The notes under the pieces were generated by a model. That model did not search any database and was not told the origin of the DNA. It saw only the letters and a list, made by a program, of their open reading frames with translations. A stretch of 64,000 nt of DNA. Source: Patescibacteria group bacterium. GTDB lineage: Bacteria; Patescibacteriota; Minisyncoccia; Phycocordibacterales; CSBR16-119. The stretch covers positions 365 through 64,364 of the forward strand of contig JAUPTX010000001.1 in assembly GCA_030917865.1 (NCBI GenBank), given 5' to 3'. A program made the position numbers and the translations under genes. How positions within the stretch are numbered: the stretch's first letter is position 1; every line of letters starts with the position of its first letter. Shown piece after piece: positions 16,977 through 45,306 of this stretch.

Positions 16977-18908
16977 ATGGCAAAAAATAATAATAAAAAA
17001 TCAAAGAAGGCTAATGGTGGTGGTTTTATGGCAAAGCTATGGACTGTTTTTTTGGTATTTTTGGTATTTACAGCGATGTATTCTTTTGTTGTAGGAAACA
17101 AAGCTGCTAAACCAGAAGATGTTTCTTTGTCTTTTCTTTCAACTTTAATTAATCAAGGCCAGGTGGCAGATATTTTAGTTGAAGGTGACAAACTTTCTAT
17201 TACATTAAACGACGAGGCTAAAACGAAATATGTTTCTAAAAAAGAAAGAGAAGCTTCTTTAACTGAAACTTTGGCAAATTATGGAGTTACAAGTGAAGCT
17301 TTATCTAAGGCTGATATAAAAATTAAAAGTGAGTCAGGTTTTGGATTTTGGATTTTAAATATTCTACCAGTTTTGGTTCCGATAATTTTTATAGTTATTT
17401 TCTTTTGGTTTATCTCAAGACAAGTAAAAGGTCAGGGGATGCAAGCTTTTTCTTTTGGTCAATCAAGAGCAAAGATGACTGATCCAAACGATAAAAACAA
17501 AGTCACTTTCAAAGATGTTGCTGGTGTTAAAGAAGCAAAGCAAGAGCTCGAAGAAATTGTAGACTTTTTGAAAAATCCTAAAAAATTTATCGACATCGGC
17601 GCAGATATTCCAAAAGGTGTTCTTTTGGAAGGTCCTCCAGGAACAGGTAAAACTCTTTTGGCGCGTGCTGTTGCTGGTGAAGCCAATGTCCCTTTCTTTC
17701 ATCTTTCTGGTTCTGATTTCGTAGAGATGTTTGTTGGTGTTGGTGCTTCTCGTGTTCGTGATCTTTTCGGTATGGCTAAAAAAGCTGCACCTTCTATTGT
17801 TTTTATTGACGAGATAGACGCAGTTGGTAGAAAAAGAGGTAGTGGTGTTGGTGGTGGAAATGACGAACGCGAACAAACACTAAACCAGATTCTTACAGAG
17901 ATGGACGGCTTTGATCAAAATCAAAAAGTTATAGTGATCGCTGCAACAAACAGATCTGATGTATTAGATAATGCACTTCTTCGACCAGGTAGATTTGATA
18001 GAAGGGTTATGGTAGAACTTCCTGATAGAGCTGGAAGAGAAGAAATACTTAAAATACATGCACGTAAAAAGCCTTTAGAGGATAGTGTTAATTTAAAGCT
18101 TGTTGCAGAACGTACTCCAGGGTTTTCTGGAGCAGATCTTTATTCTTTGATGAACGAAGCTGCTATCCGTGCTGCAAGAGAAGATAGAAAAAAAGTTTCT
18201 CAAGATGATATTTTGCTTTCTATTGACAAAGTTTTGATTGGTCCAGAAAGAAAGAGTCATATAATGAACGATCAGGAAAAGAAAATTGTTGCATATCATG
18301 AAGCTGGTCACGCATTAGTTATGTCTGTTCTTCCAAACTCAGATCCTGTTCATAAAGTGACCATAGTTTCTCGTGGGCGTGCAGGCGGATACACAATGAA
18401 TCTTCCACTAGAAGAAAGATATTTGAACAACAGATCAGAATTTAAAGACGACATTGCTGGAACTTTGGGTGGTTATGTTGCTGAGAAAATGGTTTTCGGA
18501 GATATTACAACAGGTCCTTCAAATGATTTACAGGTTATAACGAGACTTGCTCGTTCTATGGTAACAAAATGGGGAATGAGTGATGTTATTGGTCCTGTGG
18601 CTCTAGAGGGTCGTGATTCTGAGGTAATGTTCGGTCGCGGTTTTGGTGAAAGAGAATATTCTGAAAAAATGTCAGATGTTATTGATCAAGAAGTAAAGAA
18701 AATTATAGATGAAGGCTTGAAAACTGCAGAAAAAGTTTTGACTGAAAAACGATCCGTGCTTGATGATATGGCAAAGATTTTGATTGATAAAGAAACTTTG
18801 GAGCAAGACGAATATAACGACTTTTTGAAAAAACACGGAATTCCTTTAAAAGAACTTCCACAAAAAGATACAAAACCAACAAAAACAGACGAGCCCATAA
18901 ATAATTAA
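16977..18908 (+). CDS. ftsH: ATP-dependent zinc metalloprotease FtsH
   Basis: Walker A GPPGTGKT, second region of homology, zinc motif HEAGHAL, and two N-terminal TM helices. Confidence 0.97.
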
Positions 18909-18997: not shown

Positions 18998-19186
18998 ATG
19001 GAAAAAGACACTAAACAGCAAATTGAGCCCCGGGCTCAAGTGGTTGAAGAAGGGGAAACCCCAGAAGGTGTATTTGGTGAAAAAGAGATGCGTTCTCGTA
19101 TGTATTCTGGGGCATATTTTCCAGGGCCGACACCTTCGCATATTTTCCATGTACCAGAACATATTCGTCGCGAGTATAAGGACTAA
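18998..19186 (+). CDS. Small G+C-rich orphan ORF (62 aa; coding status uncertain)
   Basis: MEKDTKQQIEPRAQVVEEGETPEG... Other frames are also open here. It is followed by a strong hairpin. Confidence 0.35.
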   Translation: MEKDTKQQIEPRAQVVEEGETPEGVFGEKEMRSRMYSGAYFPGPTPSHIFHVPEHIRREYKD

Positions 19187-19195
19187 CGTCCTGCT

Positions 19196-19232
19196 CGAAA
19201 AGGCGTCGACCTTATGGGTCGACGCCTTTCGT
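19196..19232 (+). terminator. Rho-independent terminator
   Basis: CGAAAGGCGTCGAC..GTCGACGCCTTTCG stem followed by TTTG. Confidence 0.8.
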
Positions 19233-19273
19233 TTGATAAAAATCTATTTTTAGTATAAACTGGTTTTTGTTAA

Positions 19274-19312
19274 CCACCCAAAGCTTGTTTGGTTAAAGCA
19301 CAGAGCTTATAT
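19274..19312 (+). pseudogene. 5'-half copy of tRNA-Ile(UAU)
   Basis: 32/39 nt identical to positions 1-39 of the intact gene. It ends in the anticodon loop CTTATAT and has no 3' half attached. Confidence 0.7.
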
Positions 19313-19391
19313 TTTCTAGCGAGGGCAGAGAGAAAAACCATTTTCTCATCGCGTGAGCGACGAAAATATATGTATTTGAAAATTTTAGAGT

Positions 19392-19465
19392 CCACCCTTA
19401 GCTCAGTTGGTTAGAGCACAGAGCTTATACCTCTGGGGTCCTAGGTTCGAATCCTAGAGGGTGGA
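19392..19465 (+). tRNA. tRNA-Ile (anticodon UAU)
   Basis: Acceptor CCACCCT/AGGGTGG, D-arm GCTC/GAGC, anticodon arm CAGAG-CTTATAC-CTCTG, T-arm CTAGG-TTCGAAT-CCTAG. No CCA is encoded. Confidence 0.85.
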
Positions 19466-19480
19466 CTCTGGAATAAATCA

Positions 19481-19523
19481 TATACCTCTCTGGCCCTAGG
19501 TTCGAATCCTAGAGGGTGGACCA
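19481..19523 (+). pseudogene. 3'-half copy of tRNA-Ile(UAU), ending in CCA
   Basis: 37/40 nt identical to the intact gene from the anticodon TAT to the discriminator, then CCA. Confidence 0.7.
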
Positions 19524-19538
19524 TTAAAGGAATTATAT

Positions 19539-21692
19539 TTACTCAAAATGAATCTTTAGTGCTCGGTTTTCGAGTTCTGTTTTTGTTAGGTCTAAATCAT
19601 CTAATAGATTTTTTTCTACTATATTTGTCGCTTCTTTTCGTGCGGCTTCTACCATTTTCAGATTTTTAATAGCTTCCATGCCGAGGTCGCTCACACCCCA
19701 TTGTTTCATGCCTGCCAAGTCTCCCGAGCCACGGAGTTTTAGATCGAGCTCTGAAAGTTCAAATCCATTTTTAGCTGTTTTTAGAGCTTTTAATCTTTCG
19801 ATACTTTTTTCATTTTTACTTTCAGAGAAAATATAACAGTACGCCTGGTGATTGCTTCGTATGACACGTCCACGAAGTTGGTGGAGCTGTGAAAGGCCAA
19901 ACCTTTCTGCGCCTTCGATTATGATCATAGTCGCATTTGGTACATTCACCCCAACTTCAACTACAGATGTGGCAACTAAAATCTCCACTTCGCCATTTGC
20001 AAATTTTTCCATAACTTTTTCTTTTTCTGTTTTTGTCATTTTGCTGTGCAGGATATCTATTTTCTTGTCTTTGAAAATTTCTTTCTTTAATCTTTCTGCT
20101 TCGGCTTTTACGGATTTGGTTTGAAGAGCGAACTCTTTTTCTGGATCTGGTTCGTCTATTCGTGGACAGATAACATAAAGCTGGCGACCTTCTGCCATTT
20201 TTTCTTTTATGAAATCATAAGTTTGCTCTCGTTTGTCTGGCGTGATTATTTCTGTGATTATCGGCTTTCTACCTTCTGGCATTTGGTCTAGCAGGGTTAA
20301 ATCTAAATCTCCATATATGGTAAGCGCTAGAGTTCGTGGTATCGGTGTTGCTGTCATCGACAGGAAGTGTGGAGCGAAGCCTTCTTTGTTGGCCAGTTTA
20401 GCACGTTGTTTTGTTCCAAAGCGGTGCTGTTCATCGACAATACCTAAAGCTAAATGTTTGAATTTCACAGATTTGTAAATCAGTGAATGCGTACCGATCA
20501 GAATTGGGATTTCTCCGTTTGCGACCCATTTCAAAAGCTGTGCTTTTGAAATATTTGTTGCACCAGACGGGTCAACTTTTGAAGGGAATTTTTTACAAGT
20601 AGATCCTGTTAAAAGTCCTATCTGTATTCCGGTGTGTTTAAAATATTTTGTAAAACCTTCGAAGTGTTGACCTGCAAGTATTTCTGTCGGCGCCATATAT
20701 GCAACTTGTAAATTACCAAAATCTTTTTGGTCTGGTCTGTTTTTTATCACTGAGTATGTGGCTGTGGCCGCGACGGCTGTTTTACCAGAACCTACGTCTC
20801 CTTCGATGAGTCGTGACATTGGGTGTGCGCCCGAAAAATCTTTCCATATTTGTGAGATGGCTTTGTCTTGAGCTTTTGTGAGCTTGAAAGGGAATTTGTC
20901 TGTAAATGTTTTTATATCTTTTTCGTCAACTTTAATTTTGAAAGATTTTTTTTGATTGTTTTCAAATTTTTCTTTCTGTCTACTTAGCTGAATAAAAAAA
21001 ACTTCTTCAAAAGCAAAACGCTTGCGAGATGATTCGCTATGGTTTTTGTTTTTTGGCATGTGGACCCAGACCAGAGCAGTCGAAAGCTTAGGAAGTTTAT
21101 ATCTGTTTAGGATTTCTTCTGGGATGTAGTCTTCTAGATTTTTCACAATTCCCGATCCGACTATTTTGTGCACAGTGTGATAAATCCATTTAGAAGTTAT
21201 ACCTTTTGTTTCTTTATAAACAGGGTAGTGGAAGCCTTCATTTTGGTCTTTGGCGAAAAGAGAATTGTGCACATCTATCGGCAAAGAATTTGTTTTTTCA
21301 AATTCTGGGTTCTGTAAAGTTAGTCCGTATTTTGAATCGCTGACTTTTCCTGTTAGAGAAACTTTTTGTCCGTCGTGGAGCATTTTGGCGATATATGCCT
21401 GGCGGAACCATGTGACTTTTATTTTTCCTGTGCCGTCGCTAATGTAACCTTCTGCCATTGGCATTTTTGACTTGAAGGCTTTTTTTGTTTTAAGTCCAGA
21501 AACTTCTCCGTAAATCGTTGCCACGTCTCCGTCGGACAAATCTTTTATCGCTTTTATTTCGCTCATGTCGCTATAGCGAACAGGGAAGTAAAATAGTAAA
21601 TCTTTTAAAGTTTCAAGTCCAAGCTTTTTCAAAGCTTTTTTTTGTGCCTCCATCAGTCGGAAACTTTTTTCTATCTTGTCGGTTAATTGCAT
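19539..21692 (-). CDS. recG: ATP-dependent DNA helicase RecG
   Basis: N-terminal LKDLLFYFPVRY, wedge-domain region, helicase motifs GDVGSGKT and DEQHRFG. Confidence 0.92.
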   Translation of the reverse strand: MQLTDKIEKSFRLMEAQKKALKKLGLETLKDLLFYFPVRYSDMSEIKAIKDLSDGDVATIYGEVSGLKTKKAFKSKMPMAEGYISDGTGKIKVTWFRQAYIAKMLHDGQKVSLTGKVSDSKYGLTLQNPEFEKTNSLPIDVHNSLFAKDQNEGFHYPVYKETKGITSKWIYHTVHKIVGSGIVKNLEDYIPEEILNRYKLPKLSTALVWVHMPKNKNHSESSRKRFAFEEVFFIQLSRQKEKFENNQKKSFKIKVDEKDIKTFTDKFPFKLTKAQDKAISQIWKDFSGAHPMSRLIEGDVGSGKTAVAATATYSVIKNRPDQKDFGNLQVAYMAPTEILAGQHFEGFTKYFKHTGIQIGLLTGSTCKKFPSKVDPSGATNISKAQLLKWVANGEIPILIGTHSLIYKSVKFKHLALGIVDEQHRFGTKQRAKLANKEGFAPHFLSMTATPIPRTLALTIYGDLDLTLLDQMPEGRKPIITEIITPDKREQTYDFIKEKMAEGRQLYVICPRIDEPDPEKEFALQTKSVKAEAERLKKEIFKDKKIDILHSKMTKTEKEKVMEKFANGEVEILVATSVVEVGVNVPNATMIIIEGAERFGLSQLHQLRGRVIRSNHQAYCYIFSESKNEKSIERLKALKTAKNGFELSELDLKLRGSGDLAGMKQWGVSDLGMEAIKNLKMVEAARKEATNIVEKNLLDDLDLTKTELENRALKIHFE

Positions 21693-27303: not shown

Positions 27304-27390
27304 GGAGACGTGTCAGAGTGGTCTAATGTGCCTCCTTGCTAAGGAGGTGGGCTTTAATCGGCCCCGAGAGTTCGAATCTCTCCGTCTCCG
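27304..27390 (+). tRNA. tRNA-Ser (anticodon GCU), class II
   Basis: Acceptor GGAGACG/CGTCTCC, anticodon arm CCTCC-TTGCTAA-GGAGG, long variable arm, T-arm GAGAG-TTCGAAT-CTCTC, discriminator G. The D-stem is weak (T10 opposite T25). Confidence 0.85.
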
Positions 27391-27416
27391 CAAAAGTCGA
27401 GCAAAGCGAGAGTTTT

Positions 27417-27606
27417 GCGGAGACGAGCAAAATACATTTATGTATTTTGTGTGAGGATTCGAAAGACGGAGGCGGTATACAAGACGAGCGAAGCGAGTGC
27501 TTGTCGCCGAGTCCGGGGAGGAAGTTCTTAATAAATTATGATCCGCCATGGGCGGAGAAATAATTTATTTAGAAACTTGACCCCGAATCTCTACGTCTCC
27601 GCACCA
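27417..27606 (+). other. 190-nt highly structured element closed by an acceptor-like stem and ending in ACCA (tRNA-derived remnant or ncRNA)
   Basis: GCGGAGACG (27417-27425) pairs with CGTCTCCGC (27594-27602), followed by ACCA. Internal hairpins lie at 27428-27449, 27483-27505 and 27530-27569. Confidence 0.4.
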
Positions 27607-27609
27607 CAT

Positions 27610-27696
27610 GGAGGATTGGGTGAGTGGCTTAAACCAGCGGTTTACTAAACCGCCGAGGGGTAAAACCCTCCGAGAGTTCGAATCTCTCATCCTCCG
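27610..27696 (+). tRNA. tRNA-Ser (anticodon ACU), class II
   Basis: Acceptor GGAGGAT/ATCCTCC, D-arm GGT/ACC, anticodon arm GCGGT-TTACTAA-ACCGC, variable stem GAGGG/CCCTC, T-arm GAGAG-TTCGAAT-CTCTC, discriminator G. Confidence 0.8.
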
Positions 27697-27771
27697 CATA
27701 TTTTAACGCAGTGAAAAAGAGCCCTCTAGGCTCTTTTTGTTTGAGTATAAAACTAATATATAATCAAATCC

Positions 27772-29361: not shown

Positions 29362-29415
29362 TTAATATAATTTTACACAATTTATTTAAAATTACTCGTG
29401 GTATAATTGGAATAT

Positions 29416-30552
29416 ATGTCTAATCCACTTTCTTCGATTTTAGGAAAATTTAGCGGGCTTTTAAAAAGCAGTGGCGGCGATAGCGCTATCGGTGTTGATA
29501 TTGGTTCTTCTGCTATAAAAATTGTTCAAATTAAAAAAGAAAAAGGTCGTGCGATTTTAGAAACTTACGGCTCTCTTTCTATTGGTCCATATGCAGAGGG
29601 TCAGGTGGGCCAGGTTGTTCCTGTCTCAGAAGAGGCCCTCGTTGCTGCCCTAAACGACTTGTTAAAAGAATCTAACTCCACAACAAAAAATGCCGCCGTC
29701 TCAATACCTGCGTCTAACTCTTTAGTTTTCCTTATGGAGCTTCCTCGAAATGTTTTAGAGAAAGATATATCAAGCATCATACAAACAGAATCAAGAAAAT
29801 ACATCCCTGTGCCCATAACAGAAGTTTCTTTGGATTGGTGGATAATACCTAAAAGACCAGAAGATGGATACACAGACGATTCGCCAAAACCTGCAAAACA
29901 AGATATCAATCAAGAATCAACAAAAGTTCTTGTTGCAGCTATTCATAATGACACTCTTGCAAAATATCAGGGTTTTATCAAAAACGCCAAACTCGAAACA
30001 GATTTTTTTGAAATAGAAATGTTCAGTAACTTAAGAGCTGTGATAGGTCAGGAACTGGGAACTATAATGATCGTAGATATTGGTGCATCAAAAACAAAAG
30101 TTTCGATTATCGATCGTGGTGTAATTCAAGATTTTCACATGGTTAATAAAGCATCTCAAGACATTACGATATCTCTGTCGACAGGACTTCAGATACCTTT
30201 TCAGGATGCAGAAGATAATAAAAAAAGATACGGTATTTTAGAAAATCCTAAATATCCTAAAGCAAAAGAAATTATAATATCAACACTTGAATATATATTT
30301 TTTGAAATAAATAATGTAGTATTAAACTATGAGAAAAAGTATAACAAGAGTGTTTCCAAAGTTATACTAACAGGTGGAGGTGCAATGCTGCCAGGGATTA
30401 TGAATATTGCTCCTTCAAAATTCAGTACTGAAGTTGTTCTAGGTAATCCTTTTACAAAAATAGAAGCACCTGCTTTCTTGGAAAAAGTTTTAGCAGAATC
30501 AGGACCAGAATTTGGAGTTGCTGCGGGTCTTGCATTACGTAAATTAAGTTAA
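29416..30552 (+). CDS. pilM: Type IV pilus assembly protein PilM (actin-like ATPase)
   Basis: IGVDIGSSAIKIVQI ... DIGASKTKVSII ... LTGGGAMLPGI. Confidence 0.85.
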   Translation: MSNPLSSILGKFSGLLKSSGGDSAIGVDIGSSAIKIVQIKKEKGRAILETYGSLSIGPYAEGQVGQVVPVSEEALVAALNDLLKESNSTTKNAAVSIPASNSLVFLMELPRNVLEKDISSIIQTESRKYIPVPITEVSLDWWIIPKRPEDGYTDDSPKPAKQDINQESTKVLVAAIHNDTLAKYQGFIKNAKLETDFFEIEMFSNLRAVIGQELGTIMIVDIGASKTKVSIIDRGVIQDFHMVNKASQDITISLSTGLQIPFQDAEDNKKRYGILENPKYPKAKEIIISTLEYIFFEINNVVLNYEKKYNKSVSKVILTGGGAMLPGIMNIAPSKFSTEVVLGNPFTKIEAPAFLEKVLAESGPEFGVAAGLALRKLS

Positions 30553-30554
30553 TT

Positions 30555-31172
30555 ATGGATAAAGAGTTTCAAACATCTTTTATACCGAAGAAGACAATAG
30601 TCGAATCTCCTAAGAGGGTTAGGAGCGGAGGTGGGATTATAAATCTCATATCTTTTATTGTTTTTGTTGCGTCTCTTTTATCTGCTGGCGGAGCTTATCT
30701 TTATAGAAATTCAGTAGAATCAGATATTGCAGAGTTTAAAAGATCTTTACAGATAGCTAAAAATCAATTTGAACCAAGCTTAATAGAAGAGCTTCAGGTT
30801 TTGGATAAAAGATTAAACGCAGCTACTACAATTTTAAATAAGCACGTCGCTGTTTCTCCTATATTTGTTTTACTCCAAGATATAACTCTACCAACTGTTA
30901 GATATTCTGATTTTACTTATGAAATAGATTCGTCTACAAGTCTTGTGAATATAGAAATGAAAGGTGAGGCAAAAGGTTACAACTTTATCGCTCTTCAAGC
31001 TGATTTATTTAGTGATAATAAATTTATAAAAAATCCTATCTTTTCTGATTTTATTTTAGATCAAACTGGAAACATAGATTTCAATCTTTCTTTTAGTGTA
31101 GACAAGTCTTTAATTTCTTATGAATCATTTATAGATAGAGAACAACCAACATTAGGAGATAATCAAATTTAG
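30555..31172 (+). CDS. PilN-like bitopic pilus alignment protein
   Basis: Single TM helix (IINLISFIVFVASLLSAGGAYLY) followed by a coiled-coil region. It occupies the position after pilM. Confidence 0.55.
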   Translation: MDKEFQTSFIPKKTIVESPKRVRSGGGIINLISFIVFVASLLSAGGAYLYRNSVESDIAEFKRSLQIAKNQFEPSLIEELQVLDKRLNAATTILNKHVAVSPIFVLLQDITLPTVRYSDFTYEIDSSTSLVNIEMKGEAKGYNFIALQADLFSDNKFIKNPIFSDFILDQTGNIDFNLSFSVDKSLISYESFIDREQPTLGDNQI

Positions 31173-31174
31173 TT

Positions 31175-31801
31175 ATGAGATGGCTTTTACCTTTAATTTT
31201 AATAGGTGGCGGTATAGCGGGCTTTTTGCTTGTGACTCAACCTATATATGAAGAAGCTTCTAATTTAAAAATAGAAGCTGATAAATACAACGAAGCTCTT
31301 TCAAATGCTAAAATTTTACAACAAGAAAGAGACAGGCTCACAGAAAAATTCAATAGTCTTAATCCAGAATATTTAGCTAGGCTTGAAAAAATTGTTCCAG
31401 ACAGCGTGGATAATATAAAACTTATTCTAGAGATTCAAGAAGTTGCTCAGGAAAGGGGTATTTTGGTTAAAAATGTTGAGTTTGAACCAGAGCAGTTTTT
31501 AGAACAAGACCCAGCTCAAACAGAAAACAATACAACAAATCAAAGACAGCAAACTGGAAATTTAAGAAGACCTGGGGCTGTTAGTAATCTAGATTATGAC
31601 GTTTACGATATCGAATTTTCTATAGAAGGCAAATATCCTGCTTTTGTTGAATTTATGAAGCTTCTCGAAAAGAGTTTGAGGGTTGTTGATGTTAGAGCTA
31701 TTTCTTTTACACCTGGAACATCTGAAGATCGTGATAAAATATACACAGATAATTATCGATATACTTTTAGAATAAATACATATCGACTAAAAGATTTATG
31801 A
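31175..31801 (+). CDS. PilO-like bitopic pilus alignment protein
   Basis: N-terminal TM helix followed by a coiled coil. The call rests on position. Confidence 0.5.
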   Translation: MRWLLPLILIGGGIAGFLLVTQPIYEEASNLKIEADKYNEALSNAKILQQERDRLTEKFNSLNPEYLARLEKIVPDSVDNIKLILEIQEVAQERGILVKNVEFEPEQFLEQDPAQTENNTTNQRQQTGNLRRPGAVSNLDYDVYDIEFSIEGKYPAFVEFMKLLEKSLRVVDVRAISFTPGTSEDRDKIYTDNYRYTFRINTYRLKDL

Positions 31802-32343
31802 GTAAAGGTTTAAAAACATTGTTAATATTTTTGATTATCGTTGTCGCTGGTGCGATAGCATATCTTCTTTTGGGAGAAGGTTTTTCTGTTCCAACTCCAA
31901 CTCTTTCTTCGCCACTGCAAACAAGTACCGGTCAACCTGTTTCTGGTCTTCAAGAGCAAAATGTTCCAGACGTTGATGCAGATCAAATCGGCCAAGAGTT
32001 TTTAACTCAACTTTTAAACATAAGATCTATTAAATTAAGAGATGACATTTTCAGTAGTCCAGCTTTCATATCTCTAACAGATTTTACAATAGAGCTTAAT
32101 CAGTTGGGTAACGAAGGAAGAGACAACCCATTTGCTCCTTTTGGTGTAGAAGGTTCTCCAATGACTGACCCTTCGCTTTCAATTGATTCATCAATTATAA
32201 ATTCAACAGATTTTCAAGTTAATCCAGCATCACCTCAGTCTACATCTTCACAATCTCAAGGCGGCGTAATGTTTGGTCCAGGAAGTGTAGAGCCAACCCC
32301 TTCATTTAATGAATTAAATAACGGAGGTGTAAACAATAGTTAA
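31798..32343 (+). CDS. Bitopic hypothetical protein of the pilus operon (PilP-like?)
   Basis: ATGA overlap with the upstream gene. It has an N-terminal TM helix, a GRDNPFAPF motif and a Ser/Pro-rich tail. Confidence 0.45.
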   Translation: MSKGLKTLLIFLIIVVAGAIAYLLLGEGFSVPTPTLSSPLQTSTGQPVSGLQEQNVPDVDADQIGQEFLTQLLNIRSIKLRDDIFSSPAFISLTDFTIELNQLGNEGRDNPFAPFGVEGSPMTDPSLSIDSSIINSTDFQVNPASPQSTSSQSQGGVMFGPGSVEPTPSFNELNNGGVNNS

Positions 32344-32345
32344 TT

Positions 32346-34064
32346 ATGAGCTTTGTTAAAGAACTCGTTGATCAAGGTTTGATATCTGATACCAAGTTAC
32401 AGTCTTTAATGAAGATTGCCGACGAAAAGTATGGTGGTGACATATATCAAGCCATATATAAAGAAACAGACCTTAATCAAGAGGCTATTTTGGATTTAAA
32501 AAGTAAATACTTTGGAATTCCAAAATTTTCTTTAGGTGGCCAAAAGCTAGATTCTTCTTTGCTTAATTTTATACCCGAAGAATCTGTCGTTCAGTATAAG
32601 ATTGCGCCAATCGGTTTCTCTGACAGTGTTTTAAATGTTGGAATAGTGGACCCTTCAAATACTCGCGCAGTTGATGCATTGCAGTTTATTTCTTCTAAAA
32701 ACGGAACTCCTTTTAAATTGTTTGTTATTTCTGACGCTGATTTTGCTGCGGTGATTGAAAATTATAAAGGTCTTGGTGGAGAAGTTGATTCTGCGTTATC
32801 TGACCTTGATTCTGAGTTAACAAAAGCAGACGAGAGTTTAAACAAGAAAGAAAACGAAACAGAAATAGATAAAAAGAAAATCGTCGAAGAGGCTCCTATA
32901 ATTAAAGTCGTGGCTGTTATTTTGCGTCACGCCGTAGAAGGTAGAGCGTCAGATATTCATATCGAAAGTACCGGAGAAAAAGTAAAAGTTCGTTTCCGTG
33001 TTGACGGAGAACTTCATACGTCTCTTACACTTCCAACAAAAGTTTATAGTGGGGTTGTCGCTCGTATAAAAATCTTAGCGAAGCTTCGTCTTGATGAAAA
33101 AAGAAAACCTCAAGATGGTGGTTTTTCTGCAAAAGTTAACGGAAGAAAAGTTGATTTCCGTGTTTCAACATTTCCAGCCTATTATGGAGAAAAAGTTGTG
33201 ATGCGTATTTTGGATACAGAAAAAGGTATTAAAACTCTGGAAGACTTAAACCTAAGAGAGGAGCACTACGATATGATCAAAGAGGCTCTTAATGCTCCAT
33301 ACGGAATTATTTTGATCACAGGTCCTACTGGTTCTGGTAAAACTACTACTCTTTATGCGATGCTAAATGCATTAGACAAAGAAGGTAAGAATGTAGTTTC
33401 TTTGGAAGATCCAGTTGAATATGTAGTTGACGGAGTGAGTCAATCTCAAGTTATGCCTGAGATTGGTTACACTTTCGCATCCGGACTTCGATCGATTTTG
33501 CGACAAGATCCAGACGTTATATTGGTTGGAGAAATTCGAGACAAAGAAACAGCAAAACTTGCAATACAAGCCGCTCTTACTGGGCACTTGGTGCTTTCAA
33601 CTCTCCACACCAACAATGCCGCTGGTGTTATTCCTCGTCTTATCGACATGGAAGTTGATCCTTATCTTATCGCGCCAACGCTTCGACTTGCTATGGCTCA
33701 ACGTCTGGCAAAAGCTACATGTGAAGATGCCAAAAAAGAAGTTCCATTAGACGAACCAACTAAGGCTATGCTTTCAGAGCAGTTTAAGGATTTACCAGAA
33801 CAATACAAATCAAAGTTAAACATAAAAAATACAATGCTCCAGACTGTTCCATCAAAGACTTGTCCGTCTGGAACACGTGGGAGGGCCGCTGTGTTTGAAA
33901 TGTTCCCAATAGATAAAGATATTGAAAAAATAATCTTAGAAAATCCAACAGAACTTGGCATACAGAAAATGATTAGAGAGAAAGGAATGCTTTCAATGAA
34001 AGAGGATGCGATATTAAAATCATTACGAGGCGATATCCCAATGCAAGAAGTTTATAATTTTTAA
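32346..34064 (+). CDS. pilB: Type IV pilus assembly ATPase PilB (GspE family)
   Basis: Walker A GPTGSGKTTTLYA, Asp box, Walker B ILVGEIRD, His box LSTLHTN. Confidence 0.93.
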   Translation: MSFVKELVDQGLISDTKLQSLMKIADEKYGGDIYQAIYKETDLNQEAILDLKSKYFGIPKFSLGGQKLDSSLLNFIPEESVVQYKIAPIGFSDSVLNVGIVDPSNTRAVDALQFISSKNGTPFKLFVISDADFAAVIENYKGLGGEVDSALSDLDSELTKADESLNKKENETEIDKKKIVEEAPIIKVVAVILRHAVEGRASDIHIESTGEKVKVRFRVDGELHTSLTLPTKVYSGVVARIKILAKLRLDEKRKPQDGGFSAKVNGRKVDFRVSTFPAYYGEKVVMRILDTEKGIKTLEDLNLREEHYDMIKEALNAPYGIILITGPTGSGKTTTLYAMLNALDKEGKNVVSLEDPVEYVVDGVSQSQVMPEIGYTFASGLRSILRQDPDVILVGEIRDKETAKLAIQAALTGHLVLSTLHTNNAAGVIPRLIDMEVDPYLIAPTLRLAMAQRLAKATCEDAKKEVPLDEPTKAMLSEQFKDLPEQYKSKLNIKNTMLQTVPSKTCPSGTRGRAAVFEMFPIDKDIEKIILENPTELGIQKMIREKGMLSMKEDAILKSLRGDIPMQEVYNF

Positions 34065-34072
34065 TTAATTTT

Positions 34073-35134
34073 ATGGATACAAATCAAAAACTCTCAAAAA
34101 TAATAGAAGACGCTATAGTGGCAGGAGGATCAGACATTCATCTTTCTTCTGGGCGTATTCCTGCAATGCGCGTTAATTCTGTTTTGGTAAATATTGTAAA
34201 TCAAAATTCAATAACTCAAGCTGAGATTTTTGACTTCCTTAAAATAATGGTTGAAGACGAAAAAAGCCTTAAAAGATTTTTGGATGAACAAGAGCTAGAC
34301 TTCGCATATGATTTTAAGCCAGGGGTGCGACTTCGAGGAAATGCATTTTTTCAAAAAGGTGAGATATCGATAGCTCTTCGTATTATTCCTCACGTAAAAA
34401 CTTTTAAAGAATTAAATCTTCCAGAACAACTAAGTCAGTTCGCGTACAAAAAACAAGGTTTCTTTTTGGTGGTTGGCCCTGTTGGACAGGGCAAGTCAAC
34501 AACAATGGCTGCGATAATCGACACGATTAACAAAGAGAGAGCCGAACATATAATCACAATAGAAGAACCTATTGAGTATATTTTTGAATCTAAAAAATCT
34601 ATAATAGATCAAAGAGAGGTTGGTATTGATACAAAAAGTTTTGAATCAGCGCTAAAATCGGCATTCCGTGAAGACGCAAACGTCTTGATGATTGGAGAAA
34701 TGAGAAGCCCGGAAACTATTTCTGCTGCCGTAACCGCTGCTGAAACAGGCCACTTTGTGATATCAACACTTCACACCAACAATGCGTCTCAGACTATAGA
34801 CCGTATTATAGATTCTTTCCCTGGTGCTCAGCAGTCTCAGATTAGAAACCAATTAGCTAGCTCTCTTCTTGGAATATTTTCTCAACGTTTAGTGCCTCGT
34901 GTTTCCGGAGGGCTTGTTCCTGCTTATGAACTTTTGATTAATACAAAAGCTACAGCAAACCTTATAAGAGAGGGTAGAACTCACGAAGTTGATATGTTAA
35001 TAGAAACTGGCTCAGAACATGGGATGATAGATATGAATCACTCTTTGGTTGAGCTTGTAAGAAAAGGTGAAATATCTGTAGATGACGCTAGAAGATTTTC
35101 TCTTAACCCTAAAGCTTTTGATAATTTACTATAA
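34073..35134 (+). CDS. pilT: Type IV pilus retraction ATPase PilT
   Basis: 353 aa. GPVGQGKSTTMAA, IITIEEPIEY, LMIGEMRS, STLHTNNA. Confidence 0.88.
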   Translation: MDTNQKLSKIIEDAIVAGGSDIHLSSGRIPAMRVNSVLVNIVNQNSITQAEIFDFLKIMVEDEKSLKRFLDEQELDFAYDFKPGVRLRGNAFFQKGEISIALRIIPHVKTFKELNLPEQLSQFAYKKQGFFLVVGPVGQGKSTTMAAIIDTINKERAEHIITIEEPIEYIFESKKSIIDQREVGIDTKSFESALKSAFREDANVLMIGEMRSPETISAAVTAAETGHFVISTLHTNNASQTIDRIIDSFPGAQQSQIRNQLASSLLGIFSQRLVPRVSGGLVPAYELLINTKATANLIREGRTHEVDMLIETGSEHGMIDMNHSLVELVRKGEISVDDARRFSLNPKAFDNLL

Positions 35135-35151
35135 TACTTTACAATTAAGTT

Positions 35152-36354
35152 ATGCTTTTTAAATACACAGCTCTAGATAAAAATGGAAAAAAGACTCAAG
35201 GCGAAATAGACGCCTTGAATAAGACTGTGGCAATTTCTGCTCTTCAAAGAAGAGATCTTATTGTTGTGACAATAAAAGGTGACGAAGATAGATCTATATT
35301 AAAAGCATCTTTTTTTGATAGAGTTCCGTTAAAAGATGTTGTTATTGCATCAAGACAACTTTCTACACTTTTCACCGCAAACGTTTCTGCATTAAAAGCA
35401 TTCACTCTTTTGGCATCTAATGCTGAAAATAAAATGCTAGCAAGTCAGCTTCAAAGAATAGGTGACGACTTGCAAGCCGGCTCTTCTATCTCAGACGCTT
35501 TGGGCAAATTTCCAAACACCTTTTCGTTGTTTTATGTAAACATGGTAAAAGCCGGAGAAGAATCTGGTAAATTAAACGAAACTTTTCAATATTTGGCTGA
35601 CTATTTAGACAGACAATACGCCCTAACTTCAAAAACAAGAAGTGCTTTGATATACCCAGCTTTCGTGGTTGTTGTGTTTATTGCTGTGATGCTTTTGATG
35701 TTTACGATGGTTATACCAAACCTATCTCAGCTTCTAGTTGAATCTGGTCAAGAGATTCCTTTTTATACACGAATAGTTATAGGTATTAGTAATTTTATAA
35801 TAGATTACGGAGTGTTTATCGCGATTGCTCTTATTTTAGGTGCAGTTTATGTTCTTTGGTTTAGGAGAAATGATTCAGGAAAAGAATATATAGACAGGAT
35901 GAAACTAAGTATTCCTGTTTTAGGAGATTTGTATAAAAAAGTTTATCTTTCTCGTATATCGGATAACTTAAATACAATGCTTTCTTCTGGTATTTCCATA
36001 ATTCGTTCTATAGAGATAACAAGCGAAGTGGTGAACAATTACGTTTATAAGGGAATTCTTAACGAAACAAAAGAAGATGTAAAATCAGGAAGTTCTCTTT
36101 CAAACGCTTTAAACAAACACAAAGAAATACCGCAGATTATGATTCAGATGGTGCAGGTGGGTGAAGAGACTGGGTCTTTGGGTTCTATACTTAAAACCCT
36201 CGCAGAGTTTTATAGGCGAGAAGTAGACGACGCCGTTGATACGATGATCGGACTTATCGAGCCTGTTATGATCGTCGGGCTTGCTGTTGGTGTAGGTATC
36301 TTGCTTACTTCTATTCTTATTCCGATTTACAATATCGCAAGTTCTATTTCTTAA
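35152..36354 (+). CDS. pilC: Type IV pilus platform protein PilC (GspF family)
   Basis: 400 aa with two GspF-type repeats and three TM segments. Confidence 0.9.
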   Translation: MLFKYTALDKNGKKTQGEIDALNKTVAISALQRRDLIVVTIKGDEDRSILKASFFDRVPLKDVVIASRQLSTLFTANVSALKAFTLLASNAENKMLASQLQRIGDDLQAGSSISDALGKFPNTFSLFYVNMVKAGEESGKLNETFQYLADYLDRQYALTSKTRSALIYPAFVVVVFIAVMLLMFTMVIPNLSQLLVESGQEIPFYTRIVIGISNFIIDYGVFIAIALILGAVYVLWFRRNDSGKEYIDRMKLSIPVLGDLYKKVYLSRISDNLNTMLSSGISIIRSIEITSEVVNNYVYKGILNETKEDVKSGSSLSNALNKHKEIPQIMIQMVQVGEETGSLGSILKTLAEFYRREVDDAVDTMIGLIEPVMIVGLAVGVGILLTSILIPIYNIASSIS

Positions 36355-36360
36355 AGATAT

Positions 36361-36383
36361 GCCGGCTCGCTTCGTTCGCCGGC
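36361..36383 (+). terminator. Hairpin after pilC (no T-run; a weak terminator or a processing site)
   Basis: GCCGGC-TCGCTTCGTTC-GCCGGC. Confidence 0.35.
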
Positions 36384-36437
36384 ACGACCCAAGATTTCCA
36401 CAGATTTACCAAAAAACGCTTTCGTCTTTTAAAATCG

Positions 36438-36446
36438 TGTTATAAT
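36438..36446 (+). promoter_or_regulatory. Extended -10 element upstream of the pilin gene
   Basis: TGTTATAAT, 38 nt upstream of the ATG at 36484. Confidence 0.4.
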
Positions 36447-36483
36447 TAAATTGTTTAAAAATTATTAAAACTAAATATTATTT

Positions 36484-36915
36484 ATGAATAGAAAAAGTTT
36501 ACAAAAAGGTTTTACATTGATTGAGCTTTTGGTGGTTGTTGCCATCATTGGTATTCTTTCAGCTATCGTTCTTGTTTCTCTAAACAGCGCGAGAGAAAAG
36601 GGTAGAGATGCATCTGCAAAAGGAAGTATGTCTTCAATTAGAGCTGCTGCTGAAATTTATTTTGATACAAATAACGTTTCTTATGCTGGGGTTTGTGCTT
36701 CTCCAGACGTACTTTCTCTTATAGCTGCTGCAGAGCGTCAAACATCAGGAACTGTTAATTGTACGGAGAGTGACGATGCTTTTGCTGCAAGTATTGCACT
36801 AAATACATCACCAAATGTTTTCTGTGTAGATTCAACTGGTTTTGCTGGAGATTTTGATTCTCAAGGAAACCAAGTTATTGATCAAGGTTCAGCTACCTCT
36901 TGTCAAACTAACTAA
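36484..36915 (+). CDS. pilA: Type IV major pilin
   Basis: Class III signal KG|FTLIELLVVVAIIGILSAIVL with Glu5. C-terminal Cys pair. Confidence 0.9.
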   Translation: MNRKSLQKGFTLIELLVVVAIIGILSAIVLVSLNSAREKGRDASAKGSMSSIRAAAEIYFDTNNVSYAGVCASPDVLSLIAAAERQTSGTVNCTESDDAFAASIALNTSPNVFCVDSTGFAGDFDSQGNQVIDQGSATSCQTN

Positions 36916-36924
36916 ATTATTTCC

Positions 36925-36950
36925 AAAACCCCCGCTTCGGCGGGGTTTTT
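36925..36950 (+). terminator. Rho-independent terminator after the pilin gene
   Basis: AAAACCCCCGC-TTCG-GCGGGGTTTTT. Confidence 0.9.
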
Positions 36951-37009
36951 GTTTTGGGTTTTCCAGTTGAAAATTATTTTATTTCTATTTATCAATATAT
37001 AATTAAGCC

Positions 37010-37786
37010 ATGGGATTAATTTATATTTTAATTTTTGTCTTTGGTGCGATAATCGGAAGTTTTTTGAACGTTGTTATCGACAGATGGAATACTGGCGTAG
37101 GGCTCGGTGGCAGATCAAAATGCGACGCAACAGGTAAACCTTTAGCATGGTATGAACTTATACCTATTGTTAGTTATATTCTCCAAGGTGGTAAATCGAT
37201 ACACTCTAAAACTCCACTTTCTATTCAGTACCCACTAGTTGAGATGGCTACAGGGTTTGTTTTTGTTTTAATTTTTTTAAAATTCTGGCCACTTGCGTTT
37301 CGTTTTCCGCCAGATTTTATGTTCGGTCTTTTGTTTAACTTTATAATCTTCAGTATTTTAACCATAATATTTGTTTACGATTTAAAGCATAAAATAATCC
37401 CAGACTTTTTTGTTTGGATTTTTAACTCATTGGTTTTATTAAATGTTTTAGTGTTTTATCCAAATATTTTGCATATTCTTGCGGGGCCGATAGTTGCTTT
37501 GCCGCTTTTTTTGCTTTGGATTGTGTCAAAAGGTAGGTGGATAGGTTTTGGTGATGTGAAATTTGCTTTAGGTATGGGGTGGATGCTCGGTATTTCTTCA
37601 GGCTTTTCTGCACTTCTTATATCTTTTTGGATTGGTGCTTTGGTCGGGATAGTTCTGTTGCTTTCAAAAATTTTAAAGAATCACGAAATCCCCTTTGCAC
37701 CATTTTTAATTATCGGAACATTCTTAACTTTTTTGTATAATATAGATATGCAAAGCGTCGGTTTGTTTTTCATGAACTTAATCTAA
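37010..37786 (+). CDS. pilD: Prepilin peptidase (A24 family)
   Basis: Polytopic, with catalytic Asp contexts VYDLKHKIIPD and GFGDVKFALGMG. Confidence 0.9.
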   Translation: MGLIYILIFVFGAIIGSFLNVVIDRWNTGVGLGGRSKCDATGKPLAWYELIPIVSYILQGGKSIHSKTPLSIQYPLVEMATGFVFVLIFLKFWPLAFRFPPDFMFGLLFNFIIFSILTIIFVYDLKHKIIPDFFVWIFNSLVLLNVLVFYPNILHILAGPIVALPLFLLWIVSKGRWIGFGDVKFALGMGWMLGISSGFSALLISFWIGALVGIVLLLSKILKNHEIPFAPFLIIGTFLTFLYNIDMQSVGLFFMNLI

Positions 37787-37787
37787 A

Positions 37788-38528
37788 ATGAAAATTTTCA
37801 AATTTAAAAATCACAATAAAGGAATGACGTTTATCGAGCTCATAGTTGTTATTGGTATTTTCGCTGCTATTTCTGGAACGGTTCTTTTTAACTATAGAGA
37901 TTTTAGCGACGGTATTAAATTACAAAATCTTTCTCAGGAAATAGCTCTTCAGGGCAAGCGAGCACAAACCTTGGCTTCGCAAGGTAGAAGACCTGTTTTA
38001 TCAAACGCTCAAAGTACAAACGGTATTGATAATTTTTTACCTTTTAATTGGGTTTCTAGTTATGGTATTGCTTTTGATTCTAATTTTCAAGATCGCTTTA
38101 TCTTTTATTTTAATAGTCCTGAATATTATTTTGATCAAACTTTAACAGATGGAACTCCTGACGAACTAAGGGTAAATAGGTCTTTAGACTTTTTTGATTT
38201 TGCTGATGGTAACTATCAAGCTGGCTGCGGTTCTGCAACTTCTGAGTGCCTCGAAGAGTTTTTGATAACCGATGGTTCGAGAATCGATCTTATATGTGCG
38301 AACAGTGAGCCTGTGGGCCCAAACGCTGACCCTGAATGTACCGAAGGTGTACTTTTAAACACTCTTCACGTTTCTTATACTAGACCGTTTCTTGAAAGTT
38401 ATATTTTAGGTGACGACGGTAGCGGGCTTTCTGAATTAGCATATGCTTTTATTAGAGTTACGACTCAAGACGGCGACCAAAAAAGATATATTACATTTTG
38501 GAATACTGGACAAATTTCAGTTAATTAA
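37788..38528 (+). CDS. Minor pilin (GspH/FimT-like)
   Basis: Prepilin signal KG|MTFIELIVVIGIFAAISG. Confidence 0.75.
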   Translation: MKIFKFKNHNKGMTFIELIVVIGIFAAISGTVLFNYRDFSDGIKLQNLSQEIALQGKRAQTLASQGRRPVLSNAQSTNGIDNFLPFNWVSSYGIAFDSNFQDRFIFYFNSPEYYFDQTLTDGTPDELRVNRSLDFFDFADGNYQAGCGSATSECLEEFLITDGSRIDLICANSEPVGPNADPECTEGVLLNTLHVSYTRPFLESYILGDDGSGLSELAYAFIRVTTQDGDQKRYITFWNTGQISVN

Positions 38529-38530
38529 AA

Positions 38531-39157
38531 ATGAAAATAAAAAATACAAAAAATAATAAAGGATTTACTTTGATAGAGGTGATGATATCCGTCGGTCTTT
38601 TTACTGTTATTATGATTATCGGTATTACTGCTATTTTGGGTGTTAATAATACATATAGAAAATCTAGAAGTATGCGCGCCGCTATTGATAACCTGAGTTT
38701 TATAATGGAAGATATGTCTAGAAATATTAGATTGGGATATTCTTATCGATGTCTTGATTCAATAGAAGTTGTGCCAACGGAAATAGAAGAACCTCGTGAT
38801 GGTTTTGGATGTAAGGGTATCGCGTTTGAACCGTTTTGGGACCCTGTCTCTGGTGACTCAGGAGATCAGGTTATTTATTATATTTTTGAAGATCCCAATA
38901 CCGGTATCGGAAGTATATTTAAATCTGATGCCGGAGGGGTCGATGGATCTTTTTCTCCTATGAATTCTTTGAATGTAGATATCGACCCTATAAAATCATC
39001 ATTTTTTATTGTTGGAGCAGAGTCTGATAGCGATTTCACTCAGCCTTTTGTGGCTATAAATTTATCTGGAGTAGCTAGTTCTTCGAGTCAGTCAACAGAT
39101 TTCAGTCTTCAGACATTTGTCACTCAAAGATTATTAGACGCACCTTTAAATCCATAA
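38531..39157 (+). CDS. Minor pilin
   Basis: Prepilin signal KG|FTLIEVMISVGLFTVIMI. Confidence 0.75.
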   Translation: MKIKNTKNNKGFTLIEVMISVGLFTVIMIIGITAILGVNNTYRKSRSMRAAIDNLSFIMEDMSRNIRLGYSYRCLDSIEVVPTEIEEPRDGFGCKGIAFEPFWDPVSGDSGDQVIYYIFEDPNTGIGSIFKSDAGGVDGSFSPMNSLNVDIDPIKSSFFIVGAESDSDFTQPFVAINLSGVASSSSQSTDFSLQTFVTQRLLDAPLNP

Positions 39158-39159
39158 TT

Positions 39160-39699
39160 ATGAAATTTTTTAAATTTAAAAAAGAATCAGGGTTTACTTT
39201 GGTTGAAACGCTTGTTGCGATAGCTATTTTTGCAACCGCCATTACTGGGCTTATTGTTATATCGGGAAGAGGTATAAACGACAATGTATTTGTTAAAAAT
39301 AAATTAACAGCTTCTTATCTTGCTCAGGAGGGTGTGGAAATTATTAGAATGATGAGAGACAATGCCGCTTTGGCTAACCCATCTTCTGATTATTGGGAAA
39401 ACTTTATAAACAACATAGATGTTTGTTATTCGCCGGATGGAACAGACGTGTGTTGGGTTGACCCCGCTGGTCCTTCTATTGGTCCTTGTGATAATCAAAT
39501 CTGTGAAAACTTGGGGTACGATGAATATACTGGTATTTATGGATATGGATTTGAAGAATCAATATTTAATAGAGAGGTAAGAGTCGTTCCTGTGGAAGAT
39601 TACGAAGAGATTTTGATTATATCTGACGTTTCTTGGACCCAGGGTAGCAATACCTACAAGACTTCTTATCAGTATAATCTTTTAAATTGGGTTTATTAA
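39160..39699 (+). CDS. Minor pilin
   Basis: Prepilin signal SG|FTLVETLVAIAIFATAITG. Confidence 0.75.
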   Translation: MKFFKFKKESGFTLVETLVAIAIFATAITGLIVISGRGINDNVFVKNKLTASYLAQEGVEIIRMMRDNAALANPSSDYWENFINNIDVCYSPDGTDVCWVDPAGPSIGPCDNQICENLGYDEYTGIYGYGFEESIFNREVRVVPVEDYEEILIISDVSWTQGSNTYKTSYQYNLLNWVY

Positions 39700-39700
39700 C

Positions 39701-40192
39701 ATGAATTTTAAATATCAAAAAGATAAAGGTTTCGTCGCACTGTTCACTGTTTTGTTAGTGAGTGTTATTTTAGCAATGGCTGTCGGCATCGCTTCTATTT
39801 CTTTGAAAGAAATCGTTCTTTCTTCTTCTGCTTCAGAAGGAAACAAGGCTTTTTATGCTGCTGATTCTGGTATTGAATGCGCTCTTTATTTTGACAAGAT
39901 TAATCTTGTGCCTGGAACCCTTCTTCAGAGTTTGGTCTGTAATGGAAATAATTATATTTTAGTAGATGGTTTCCCTGATCCTGGTCCGACAAGTAATAGT
40001 TTAACAGACGAAGTTTATAATTTTGCTATACCTTTTGGAGCAAACGATGAACTTTGTGCTGATATTCAAGTTGAGAGAGCTATTATTGGAGAGGTTTTCT
40101 CTACAAGAATAGAATCAAAAGGAAGTAATGTTGCCTGTGATGATGATAGTAATCCTAAAAAGGTTGAGAGATCTATTAGAGTTACTTATTAA
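39701..40192 (+). CDS. PilX-like pilin-related protein (no Glu5)
   Basis: KG|FVALFTVLLVSVILAMAVG. It is the last gene of the minor-pilin block. Confidence 0.6.
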   Translation: MNFKYQKDKGFVALFTVLLVSVILAMAVGIASISLKEIVLSSSASEGNKAFYAADSGIECALYFDKINLVPGTLLQSLVCNGNNYILVDGFPDPGPTSNSLTDEVYNFAIPFGANDELCADIQVERAIIGEVFSTRIESKGSNVACDDDSNPKKVERSIRVTY

Positions 40193-45299: not shown

Positions 45300-45306
45300 C
45301 AAATAA

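Follow-up and report, generated by a model that had tools for sequence, protein, structure and literature searches.

A probable small insertion cassette carrying a complete tRNA-Ile(UAU) gene within the anticodon loop of the resident tRNA-Ile(UAU) gene in Patescibacteria

An intact tRNA-Ile(UAU) gene enclosed by two halves of another copy

We analyzed a 64,000-nucleotide (nt) stretch of the genome of a Patescibacteria group bacterium (GenBank assembly GCA_030917865.1, contig JAUPTX010000001.1, positions 365 to 64,364 of the forward strand; hereafter, the window), focusing on a locus at which a complete tRNA-Ile(UAU) gene is enclosed by two partial copies of itself. The locus lies between the core genes ftsH (16977–18908, plus strand) and recG (19539–21692, minus strand), with SmpB and the transfer-messenger RNA (tmRNA) encoded a short way upstream and a terminator-like site at 19561–19575. 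The window is a core chromosomal stretch that matches a JGI metagenome contig and, going by its RecG relatives, belongs to a genome of the Nomurabacteria/Paceibacterota type. Its open reading frames (ORFs) scanned against Pfam, about 45 in number, encode housekeeping and type IV pilus functions, with no integrase, transposase or TilS among them.

ARAGORN called a single tRNA-Ile(tat) at the locus (19392–19466), and the inner tRNA (19392–19465, plus strand) scored 70.1 bits against the Rfam tRNA family (RF00005), whose gathering score is 29. Its anticodon TAT occupies 19426–19428, and the gene is directly followed by CTCT, with no encoded CCA, as an initial annotation of this DNA had described. 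It is identical at 75 of 75 positions to the solo tRNA of a sister locus, L322. Judging from its sequence, this inner tRNA appears to be the working gene copy.

The flanking copies likewise bear out what the initial annotation had read from the letters. Upstream, 19274–19312 repeats positions 1–39 of the intact tRNA (32/39 identical), and downstream, 19481–19520 repeats positions 35–74 (37/40 identical) and is followed by CCA. Since the within-window blastn-short E-values of the two copies are 1.3e-5 and 1.4e-11 in 64 kb, these matches are not due to chance. Only 79 nt (19313–19391) and 15 nt separate the pieces. The upstream copy is degenerate: it carries A7, A8 and G14, so that U8 and A14 are lost; its D stem reads GCTT/AAGC rather than the GCTC/GAGC of the intact gene; and three changes break its anticodon stem. 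When the outer halves were joined, neither chimera was called a tRNA by ARAGORN at its default threshold; a lowered threshold was needed for them to be called, and they then showed an A.A mismatch at 7:66 and anticodon loops of irregular form. The outer halves of the window thus look like disabled remnants of a resident gene.

The insert is present or absent as a discrete block among close relatives

Relatives were compared at 80 RecG-linked loci from species-representative genomes, together with metagenome contigs and further RecG relatives. In the sister locus L322, a contig of 403 kb, RecG is 96% identical to that of the window, and the flanks are 90–93% identical at the nucleotide level. 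L322 shares the window's small ORF, terminator, promoter, 12-nt leader and CCA+TTAAAGG junction, and holds one uninterrupted tRNA. The blastn segments that align the window to L322 stop at 19311 and resume at 19481, overlapping by TATA (four bases) in L322. The window minus L322 is a 169-nt block, 19312–19480, with TATA (tRNA nt 34–37) at both junctions.

Because L322 has identical flanks, promoter and CCA tail around a single tRNA, the outer halves can be said to occupy the place of the resident gene. The outer 5' half (19274–19311, plus strand) comprises resident-gene positions 1–37, ends in TATA (19308–19311) and has the same spacing to the promoter as the complete L322 tRNA. This promoter-like site, identified by a promoter scan at 19233–19261 on the plus strand (TTGATA, 17 nt, TAAACT), also precedes the uninterrupted tRNA in L322, L003, L007 and L006. 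In relatives with a solo tRNA-Ile(UAU), the promoter (TTTGATAAAAA..TATAAACT) lies approximately 12–20 nt upstream and the tRNA abuts the end of recG; in the window, the promoter precedes the outer 5' half, and recG comes after the outer 3' half. The latter (19481–19523, plus strand) consists of the resident gene's 3' half (its positions 34–73, 37/40) and its encoded CCA, and its junction GGGTGGACCA+TTAAAGG also ends the uninterrupted L322 tRNA. We had considered the CCA as a mark of a processed or retro-copied RNA, an idea that was dropped because L322 identifies it as the encoded CCA of the native gene.

A second, independent pair of alleles captures the insertion in another tRNA background. 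L338 and L339 hold a module with an intact inner tRNA of a type beginning GCGCGTG, and in L334 a tRNA of this same type is split at TATA by a related cassette. The L334 halves flanking this cassette are identical to the L338 tRNA right up to TATA on both sides, and the event reads as a clean 172-nt insertion (a 168-nt cassette plus the duplicated TATA), which makes the L334 locus nested three levels deep. The L334 and window cassettes are identical at 149 of 169 positions, yet they reside in different tRNAs, and their differences include compensatory pairs in the P1 stem described below, the acceptor stem and the T stem. Since the identity at the L334 junctions to a donor of the cassette's own tRNA type is at most 9 and 8 nt, RecA-type exchange would not suffice to explain this insertion.

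Taken together, the two comparisons show that the insert is a discrete block, present or absent among close relatives. The initial annotation had offered a nested duplication as one description, which is correct, and had proposed a search for empty and occupied sites; both kinds of allele were found, in the pairs window/L322 and L334/L338.

The cassette is organized around conserved hairpins

The inserted cassette (19312–19480, plus strand) consists of a hairpin that we term M, a leader (L5), the complete tRNA and a trailer (L3), with TATA duplicated at the junctions. M is an irregular hairpin of 55 nt (19312–19366, plus strand) with a 5-bp stem P1 (TTTTC/GAAAA), an internal loop, and a stem P2 with a variable tip, whose apical stem lies at 19330–19347. 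This apical stem is one of two small hairpins that had been noticed in the 79-nt spacer; the other, at 19349–19360 with a GTGA loop, is merely a local alternative fold and lies outside the structure conserved in relatives. In the internal loop, AGCGAGG(A) faces (UCC)GAGCGA(A); both are conserved and may be depicted as tandem G.A pairs between G-C pairs, and the conservation is asymmetric across the loop (AGCGAGGA opposite UCCGAGCGAA).

Six M copies from different organisms each fold alike, with z-scores of -4 to -6.7. In their alignment, 97% of the cells are paired, 8 of 18 pairs change on both sides, and none of 500 shuffles reached the covariation score. P1 alone occurs as TTTTC/GAAAA, ACGGG/CCCGT, AATGG/CCGTT and ATTAC/GTAGT. 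A covariance model of M matched 19308–19370 at 61.9 bits, the window sequence being one of the six used to build the model.

The leader and trailer form a second conserved helix. L5 (19367–19391, plus strand; TATATGTATTTGAAAATTTTAGAGT) is nearly invariant among six modules of the window's layout and pairs with the complementary L3 (19466–19480, plus strand; CTCTGGAATAAATCA), prolonging the acceptor stem of the inner tRNA. The helix is 100% paired with covarying positions, including pair 19-105, which occurs as four pair types. Because the U.G pair at 20-104 is invariant, the strand that folds is the tRNA-sense strand. Solo tRNAs of relatives have no leader and trailer extension of this type. 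The fold of the whole module is a nested rod, with a z-score of -6.1 in the window and of -7.6 and -4.8 in two relatives. In both M and the L5/L3 helix, compensatory changes have thus preserved the pairing of the tRNA-sense strand.

The junctions can be parsed as TA duplications around two foldback units, namely T34 A35 [TA]{M}[TA]{TATGAATT..tRNA..AATTCATA}[TA] C38, with cassette ends of the TATGAATTTGAAAAT type. A scan of the window at Rfam gathering thresholds reported only tRNA and tmRNA, and no family besides tRNA matched 19150–19600 at E<=10. We inspected M by eye as a possible hammerhead, k-turn, group II domain V, integron attC site or bulge-helix-bulge, and rejected each since the conserved nucleotides did not fit the consensus. 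A promoter within M and L5 was likewise rejected, a promoter scan and inspection having revealed no acceptable, properly spaced -35/-10 pair on the plus strand.

Related cassettes recur in different tRNA backgrounds

Modules of this kind were detected in at least 12 related loci: L008, L010, L019, L047, L055, L079, L149, L159, L188, L334 and L338/L339. The first six are the module-bearing loci among those of the 80 from species-representative genomes that hold a tRNA-Ile(UAU) beside recG (about 55); L149, L159 and L188 come from metagenome contigs, and L334 and L338/L339 from the further RecG relatives. The pattern used on the metagenomes (GCTTATA, a gap and a D-arm) was too loose, in that 116 of 120 matches were chance occurrences of GCTTATA upstream of common tRNAs, and only L149, L159 and L188 proved to be modules.

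We observed two layouts. In type A (the window, L008, L010, L149, L159, L188 and the inner level of L334), a closed M hairpin is followed by L5, the tRNA and L3. In type B (L019, L055, L047, L338 and the outer level of L334), the P2 stem of M encloses the tRNA together with its leader and trailer, and M is separated from the 3' half by a small AT-only foldback. In all modules, the 5' half ends in CTTATA and the 3' half starts with TATAC. Multiple nesting is seen in L079 and L334; in L079, one 3' half follows another, and a separate M 3' strand stands before each of them. Inner and outer tRNAs belong to different sequence types in L008/L010, L047, L159, L079 and L334, and type-A cassettes occur in at least three different resident tRNA types. 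Members of the cassette family have therefore entered several kinds of resident tRNA, with as many as three levels of nesting.

Cassette similarity does not track the relatedness of the hosts. The L188 host has its nearest relative in L006, a genome with a solo tRNA (RecG 96%, FtsH 97%), and is closer to the window (RecG 88%, FtsH 91.5%) than to L008; yet its M hairpin is about 90% similar to the L008 hairpin and only about 55% similar to that of the window. Similarly, L008 and L010 are 72–73% identical in recG and ftsH DNA and 98% identical over their 252-nt modules, which stand in opposite orientation relative to the flanks.

The tRNA-Ile unit as such is found in either orientation between recG and ftsH across relatives, the entries concerned being L323–L326:4719-4795, L002, L010, L028, L044, L046, L050, L062, L067, L068, L072, L073, L077 and L081. 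In L323 (RecG 91% to the window), the promoter and the tRNA are inverted together, and in L073, 21 nt from the tRNA 3' end are repeated in inverted orientation approximately 30 nt downstream.

The outer halves decay while the inner tRNA stays intact

Degeneration, where it is seen, affects the outer copy, and no module has a damaged inner tRNA. In L055 the acceptor strands of the outer halves are no longer complementary, and L047 and L079 retain only fragments of the outer copies. GC-rich hairpins have been inserted in the D or T loops of the outer halves of L149, L159, L334 and L338; the outer 3' half is truncated in L149 and absent from L188. The outer halves are perfect in L019 and L188. 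With the outer copies degenerate in most modules and the inner tRNA intact throughout, it is unlikely that the outer halves are spliced into a tRNA.

Loss of modules through recombination between the repeated halves is plausible, as exemplified by L188, which lacks its 3' side, and by L006. In the latter, the solo tRNA-Ile(UAU) (L006:6782-6858) combines a 5' acceptor strand CCACCC with a 3' strand GGGCGG, leaving an A3.C70 mismatch; by its sequence it looks like a chimera of two alleles, as expected from a nested module resolved by recombination.

The hairpins in the disabled outer halves are GC-rich palindromes of 20–35 nt (for example, CCCGCCCGAACGG..CGGTACGGGCGGG) located within D or T loops. 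They were seen in the outer 5' halves of L149, L159, L079 and L047 and in the outer 3' halves of L159, L334 (3700–3790) and L338, and they often hold CCGAACG and CGGTAC motifs. These may represent a second family of small hairpin inserts.

M-type hairpins beyond the modules

When M was sought by regular expressions and descriptors, the patterns either let through too much noise or proved too strict. The covariance model found no second copy in the 64-kb window, and 598 kb of DNA from unrelated and sister loci gave no match to M. Outside tRNA-Ile modules, about 0.8 Mb of related loci yielded a single convincing M copy, L081:675-742 (44 bits, E 7e-7). This hairpin has P1 TCGAC/GTCGA and the elements AAGCGAGGA...TCCGAGCGAA, and lies in the intergenic region upstream of recG, outside a tRNA and with no TATA flanks. 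An M-like hairpin in L063 lies among ordinary GC-rich terminator hairpins and was set aside as probably coincidental.

A probable insertion cassette that brings a replacement tRNA

We consider it probable that a 169-nt, protein-less cassette split the resident tRNA-Ile(UAU) gene in its anticodon loop while bringing a replacement tRNA, and that it is a small, non-autonomous, site-specific insertion cassette. The complete tRNA-Ile(UAU) of the cassette would take over the function of the split gene. The unit would be transcribed from the resident promoter as one precursor of about 300 nt, reading through the outer 5' half and M; the L5/L3 helix would keep the inner tRNA folding with its own halves, insulated from the outer ones; and RNase P together with 3'-end processing would release the inner tRNA. 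Insertion itself would be site-specific and carried out by an enzyme supplied in trans, for which a transposase targeting TA or a recombinase or nuclease recognizing folded single strands are candidates, with the structured ends and M as putative recognition features. The asymmetric conservation of the M internal loop points to recognition of a folded single strand, of either DNA or RNA. The direct repeats of the halves could later permit partial or complete loss via recombination.

More tentatively, the cassette may be a mobile element of a new kind, a selfish tRNA gene, that is, an element of about 170 nt that encodes no protein, has its identity in a folded single-strand structure (M plus the leader/trailer rod) and homes into the anticodon loop of its own isoacceptor. 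The self-complementary UAUA at nt 34–37 could then guide target choice by base pairing. Because such a cassette replaces the essential gene that it destroys, it would survive and could re-invade its own copy indefinitely, yielding Russian-doll genes.

Several observations weigh against an insertion cassette mobilized in trans. The inner tRNA of the window is identical to the native tRNA of L322, so the change between the two could be either a gain in the window or a loss in L322. Derived states of the outer 5' half (A7, A8, T13 and A22) are common to the window and L008/L010, and the block of identity between L008 and L010 spans the outer halves exactly, starting and ending at the outer tRNA ends; these two facts suggest that whole modules, and not cassettes alone, have also been exchanged or conserved. 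Pfam detected no recombinase domain in the roughly 45 window ORFs or in 10 ORFs beside modules in relatives, the cassette ends were not seen in free form elsewhere in the approximately 2 Mb of loci examined, and viral contigs scanned for the M motif and the leader returned chance matches only, or none. The cassette is also single-copy per locus, unlike typical miniature inverted-repeat transposable elements (MITEs).

The shared whole modules raise the alternative that a single ancient insertion was followed by enzyme-free spread, the whole nested unit moving by DNA uptake and homologous recombination through the outer halves and flanking genes, and the hairpins being kept only for maturation of the inner tRNA. 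A single junction common to all modules would follow from this, as would the derived 5'-half states and the L008/L010 block bounded by the outer tRNA ends; the chimeric solo tRNA of L006 is what recombinational resolution would leave, and the window encodes type IV pilus or competence-type genes (PilM, PilB/T-like, PilC-like and a prepilin peptidase). We nevertheless regard this route as unlikely to account for the modules, given that the L334 halves are purely recipient-type up to TATA, with too little donor identity for RecA-type exchange, and that type-A cassettes sit in several resident tRNA types. An old and inert local duplication or rearrangement, inherited vertically without mobility and repeatedly lost by recombination between the halves, would fit the patchy distribution (a module in approximately 11% of the relatives' tRNA-holding loci) and the ease with which direct repeats are lost, as in L188 and the truncated L149. 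It strikes us as quite improbable, however, considering that inner and outer tRNAs are different alleles in several modules, that L334 is a fresh insertion into an inner tRNA, that cassette similarity is incongruent with host relatedness, down to non-coding parts that are 98% identical between hosts with recG and ftsH at 72–73%, and that hairpins under structural constraint are not inert.

The initial annotation had favored a scar of tyrosine-integrase activity, which would require one element carrying a 3'-half copy and another carrying a 5'-half copy, both since deleted to short remnants. Attachment (att) sites classically show up as partial tRNA copies next to an intact tRNA, the anticodon loop is a common crossover site (see also bioRxiv 10.1101/2022.07.05.498093), and small end-fragment copies occur at other tRNAs of the window too. 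But the locus has no island and the scanned ORFs hold no integrase or other recombinase; the 5' half is displaced as well as the 3' half; the two supposed remnants pair with one another, were gained as one structured block and recur, as 79 and 15 nt, in distant hosts; and the junction identity is just 4 nt, 6 at most. A scar of this origin is therefore very improbable. We give hardly any credence to an intron-like RNA in which the outer halves are exons, spliced either by M acting as a ribozyme or by protein enzymes (an endonuclease and a ligase), with the inner tRNA as intron cargo. The anticodon loop is indeed also where group I introns, which are common in tRNAs of Patescibacteria (PMC13011429), are inserted, the RNA has a strong structure that includes conserved unpaired motifs, and L019 and L188 have perfect outer halves; against this, Rfam returned no intron match at E<=10, group I included, the insert is too short for a group I core and lacks a terminal G before the 3' exon, and the outer halves of most modules are degenerate, hairpin-interrupted, truncated or missing, whereas the inner tRNA is always intact.

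Relation to known elements

Four known systems come closest, and the locus matches none of them completely. The proposed cassette resembles tRNA-targeting integrative elements (prophages, islands and integrase-less cis-mobilizable elements) in its tRNA target, here the anticodon loop, in carrying tRNA sequence so that a working gene survives, and in leaving displaced partial copies as direct repeats with tandem or nested accretion. It differs in being 169 nt in all, in encoding no protein and in being defined by conserved hairpins; moreover, its tRNA cargo is complete where those elements bring a 3' segment, so that both halves are displaced, and its junction identity is TATA only. Where an att site would have a kilobase-scale element with an integrase between tRNA and fragment, the spacers here are 79 and 15 nt. 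An att-type copy running from the crossover to the 3' end describes the 3' half, but the 5' half is displaced too, and the shared junction is 4 nt (6 in L149), where an att-type identity block would measure 7 bp or more.

Bacterial MITEs and foldback elements with a TA duplication include the Correia elements of Neisseria and the RUP elements of pneumococcus, which are mobilized in trans by IS630-type transposases. The cassette is similar to these in its size (100–200 nt), its lack of an ORF, its probable co-transcription with host genes, its inverted-repeat termini that would fold as transcript hairpins, and its junctions, which can be read as TA{M}TA{U}TA, where U is the tRNA-bearing foldback unit. 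Terminal inverted repeats with a short duplication are present: U ends in TATGAATT.../...AATTCATA, M ends in ACGGG/CCCGT or TTTTC/GAAAA, and TATA or TA stands at each junction. MITEs are found in many dispersed copies per genome, whereas the 64-kb window has one copy, and the cassette appears to be restricted to one target, with a putatively functional tRNA as cargo. The asymmetric loop of M also points to a folded single strand rather than to duplex terminal repeats. Among the loci examined, no partner transposase was seen.

Group I introns have been described in the tRNA anticodon loops of Patescibacteria (PMC13011429), and the cassette shares with them the phylum, the kind of host gene, the loop and a structured intervening sequence. 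It differs in having no group I core, in that the exons are not kept functional, and in that the gene is rescued by a second copy and not by splicing. Using the P3–P9 core as modeled in Rfam, a U ending the 5' exon and a G ending the intron as criteria, we found no core in 19150–19600, and the base before the 3' half is A. Archaeal split and intron-containing tRNAs, such as the tRNA halves of Nanoarchaeum equitans and bulge-helix-bulge introns, are alike in their separation at the anticodon loop and in their complementary flanking sequences. Here, however, the host is bacterial, and the halves flank a complete tRNA and decay; the predicted folds are continuous rods with asymmetric loops rather than a 3-4-3 bulge-helix-bulge, and the outer halves are mostly degenerate.

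Other features of the window

The initial annotation had pointed to the use of a UAU tRNA for AUA decoding as a matter of interest. The UAU tRNA is real, but tRNA-Ile(UAU) adjoins recG in about 55 of the 80 RecG-linked loci and is the norm in the clade, not a peculiarity of this locus. UAU-based decoding of AUA is known from Mycoplasma mobile (PMC3575796). Two CAU tRNAs are also encoded within the window (44920–44994 and 45229–45300).

A G+C-rich ORF of 62 amino acids (aa) directly upstream (18998–19186), which had been brought into connection with the duplication, turned out to be unrelated to the modules. It has no Pfam match and no match in loci L002–L201, and a counterpart is conserved, with substitutions, in the module-free sister (L322:4834-5061), so we rejected it as a cassette gene. 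ORFs of 59–64 aa were called at the equivalent position in L327 and L338, and a strong hairpin terminator (19197–19234) follows the ORF in the window.

Two further tRNA loci of the window contain partial copies. Downstream of a tRNA-Ser(GCT) at 27304–27391, at a distance of 218 nt, lies a second tRNA-Ser whose anticodon, ACT, is unusual (27610–27697), and a 19-nt copy of the tRNA-Ser(GCT) 3' end lies just before the ACT gene (27584–27602). The pair is kept in many relatives, in tandem or divergent arrangement, and at its gathering threshold Rfam reports the GCT copy only. At tRNA-Met(CAT) (45229–45300), an exact 24–28-nt copy of the 5' end (ATAT+AGCGGGGTAGAGCAGTGGTAGCTC) lies 96 nt upstream (45129–45156), and a strong promoter-like sequence is found upstream of this fragment. 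The layout of 5' fragment, spacer and whole tRNA is like that of tRNA-Ile, but the break falls after the D arm and no M-like hairpin is present.

Finally, positions 29407–40192 hold a full type IV pilus/competence-like cluster, with PilM, two T2SSE ATPases, T2SSF, a prepilin peptidase and several N-methyl pilins. This cluster is relevant to DNA uptake as a route by which alleles of the tRNA locus could be exchanged.

Implications for tRNA genes in Patescibacteria

In the literature searched, we found no description of a bacterial tRNA gene that holds, within its anticodon loop, a whole further gene for the same isoacceptor. Because tRNA finders report the inner gene only, such nested loci are invisible in annotation, and their halves may be mistaken for integration scars. 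If the cassette is what we propose, bringing a full replacement copy would be a minimal way to occupy an essential single-copy gene safely, and the arrangement would constitute a third kind of bacterial tRNA-gene interruption, beside group I introns and integrase att sites. The M hairpin and leader would be a candidate for a new RNA-protein or single-stranded-DNA-protein recognition motif. The nested halves, in turn, would provide a built-in record of successive invasions as well as a source of recombination, giving rise to chimeric tRNAs, inversions and deletions at the locus.

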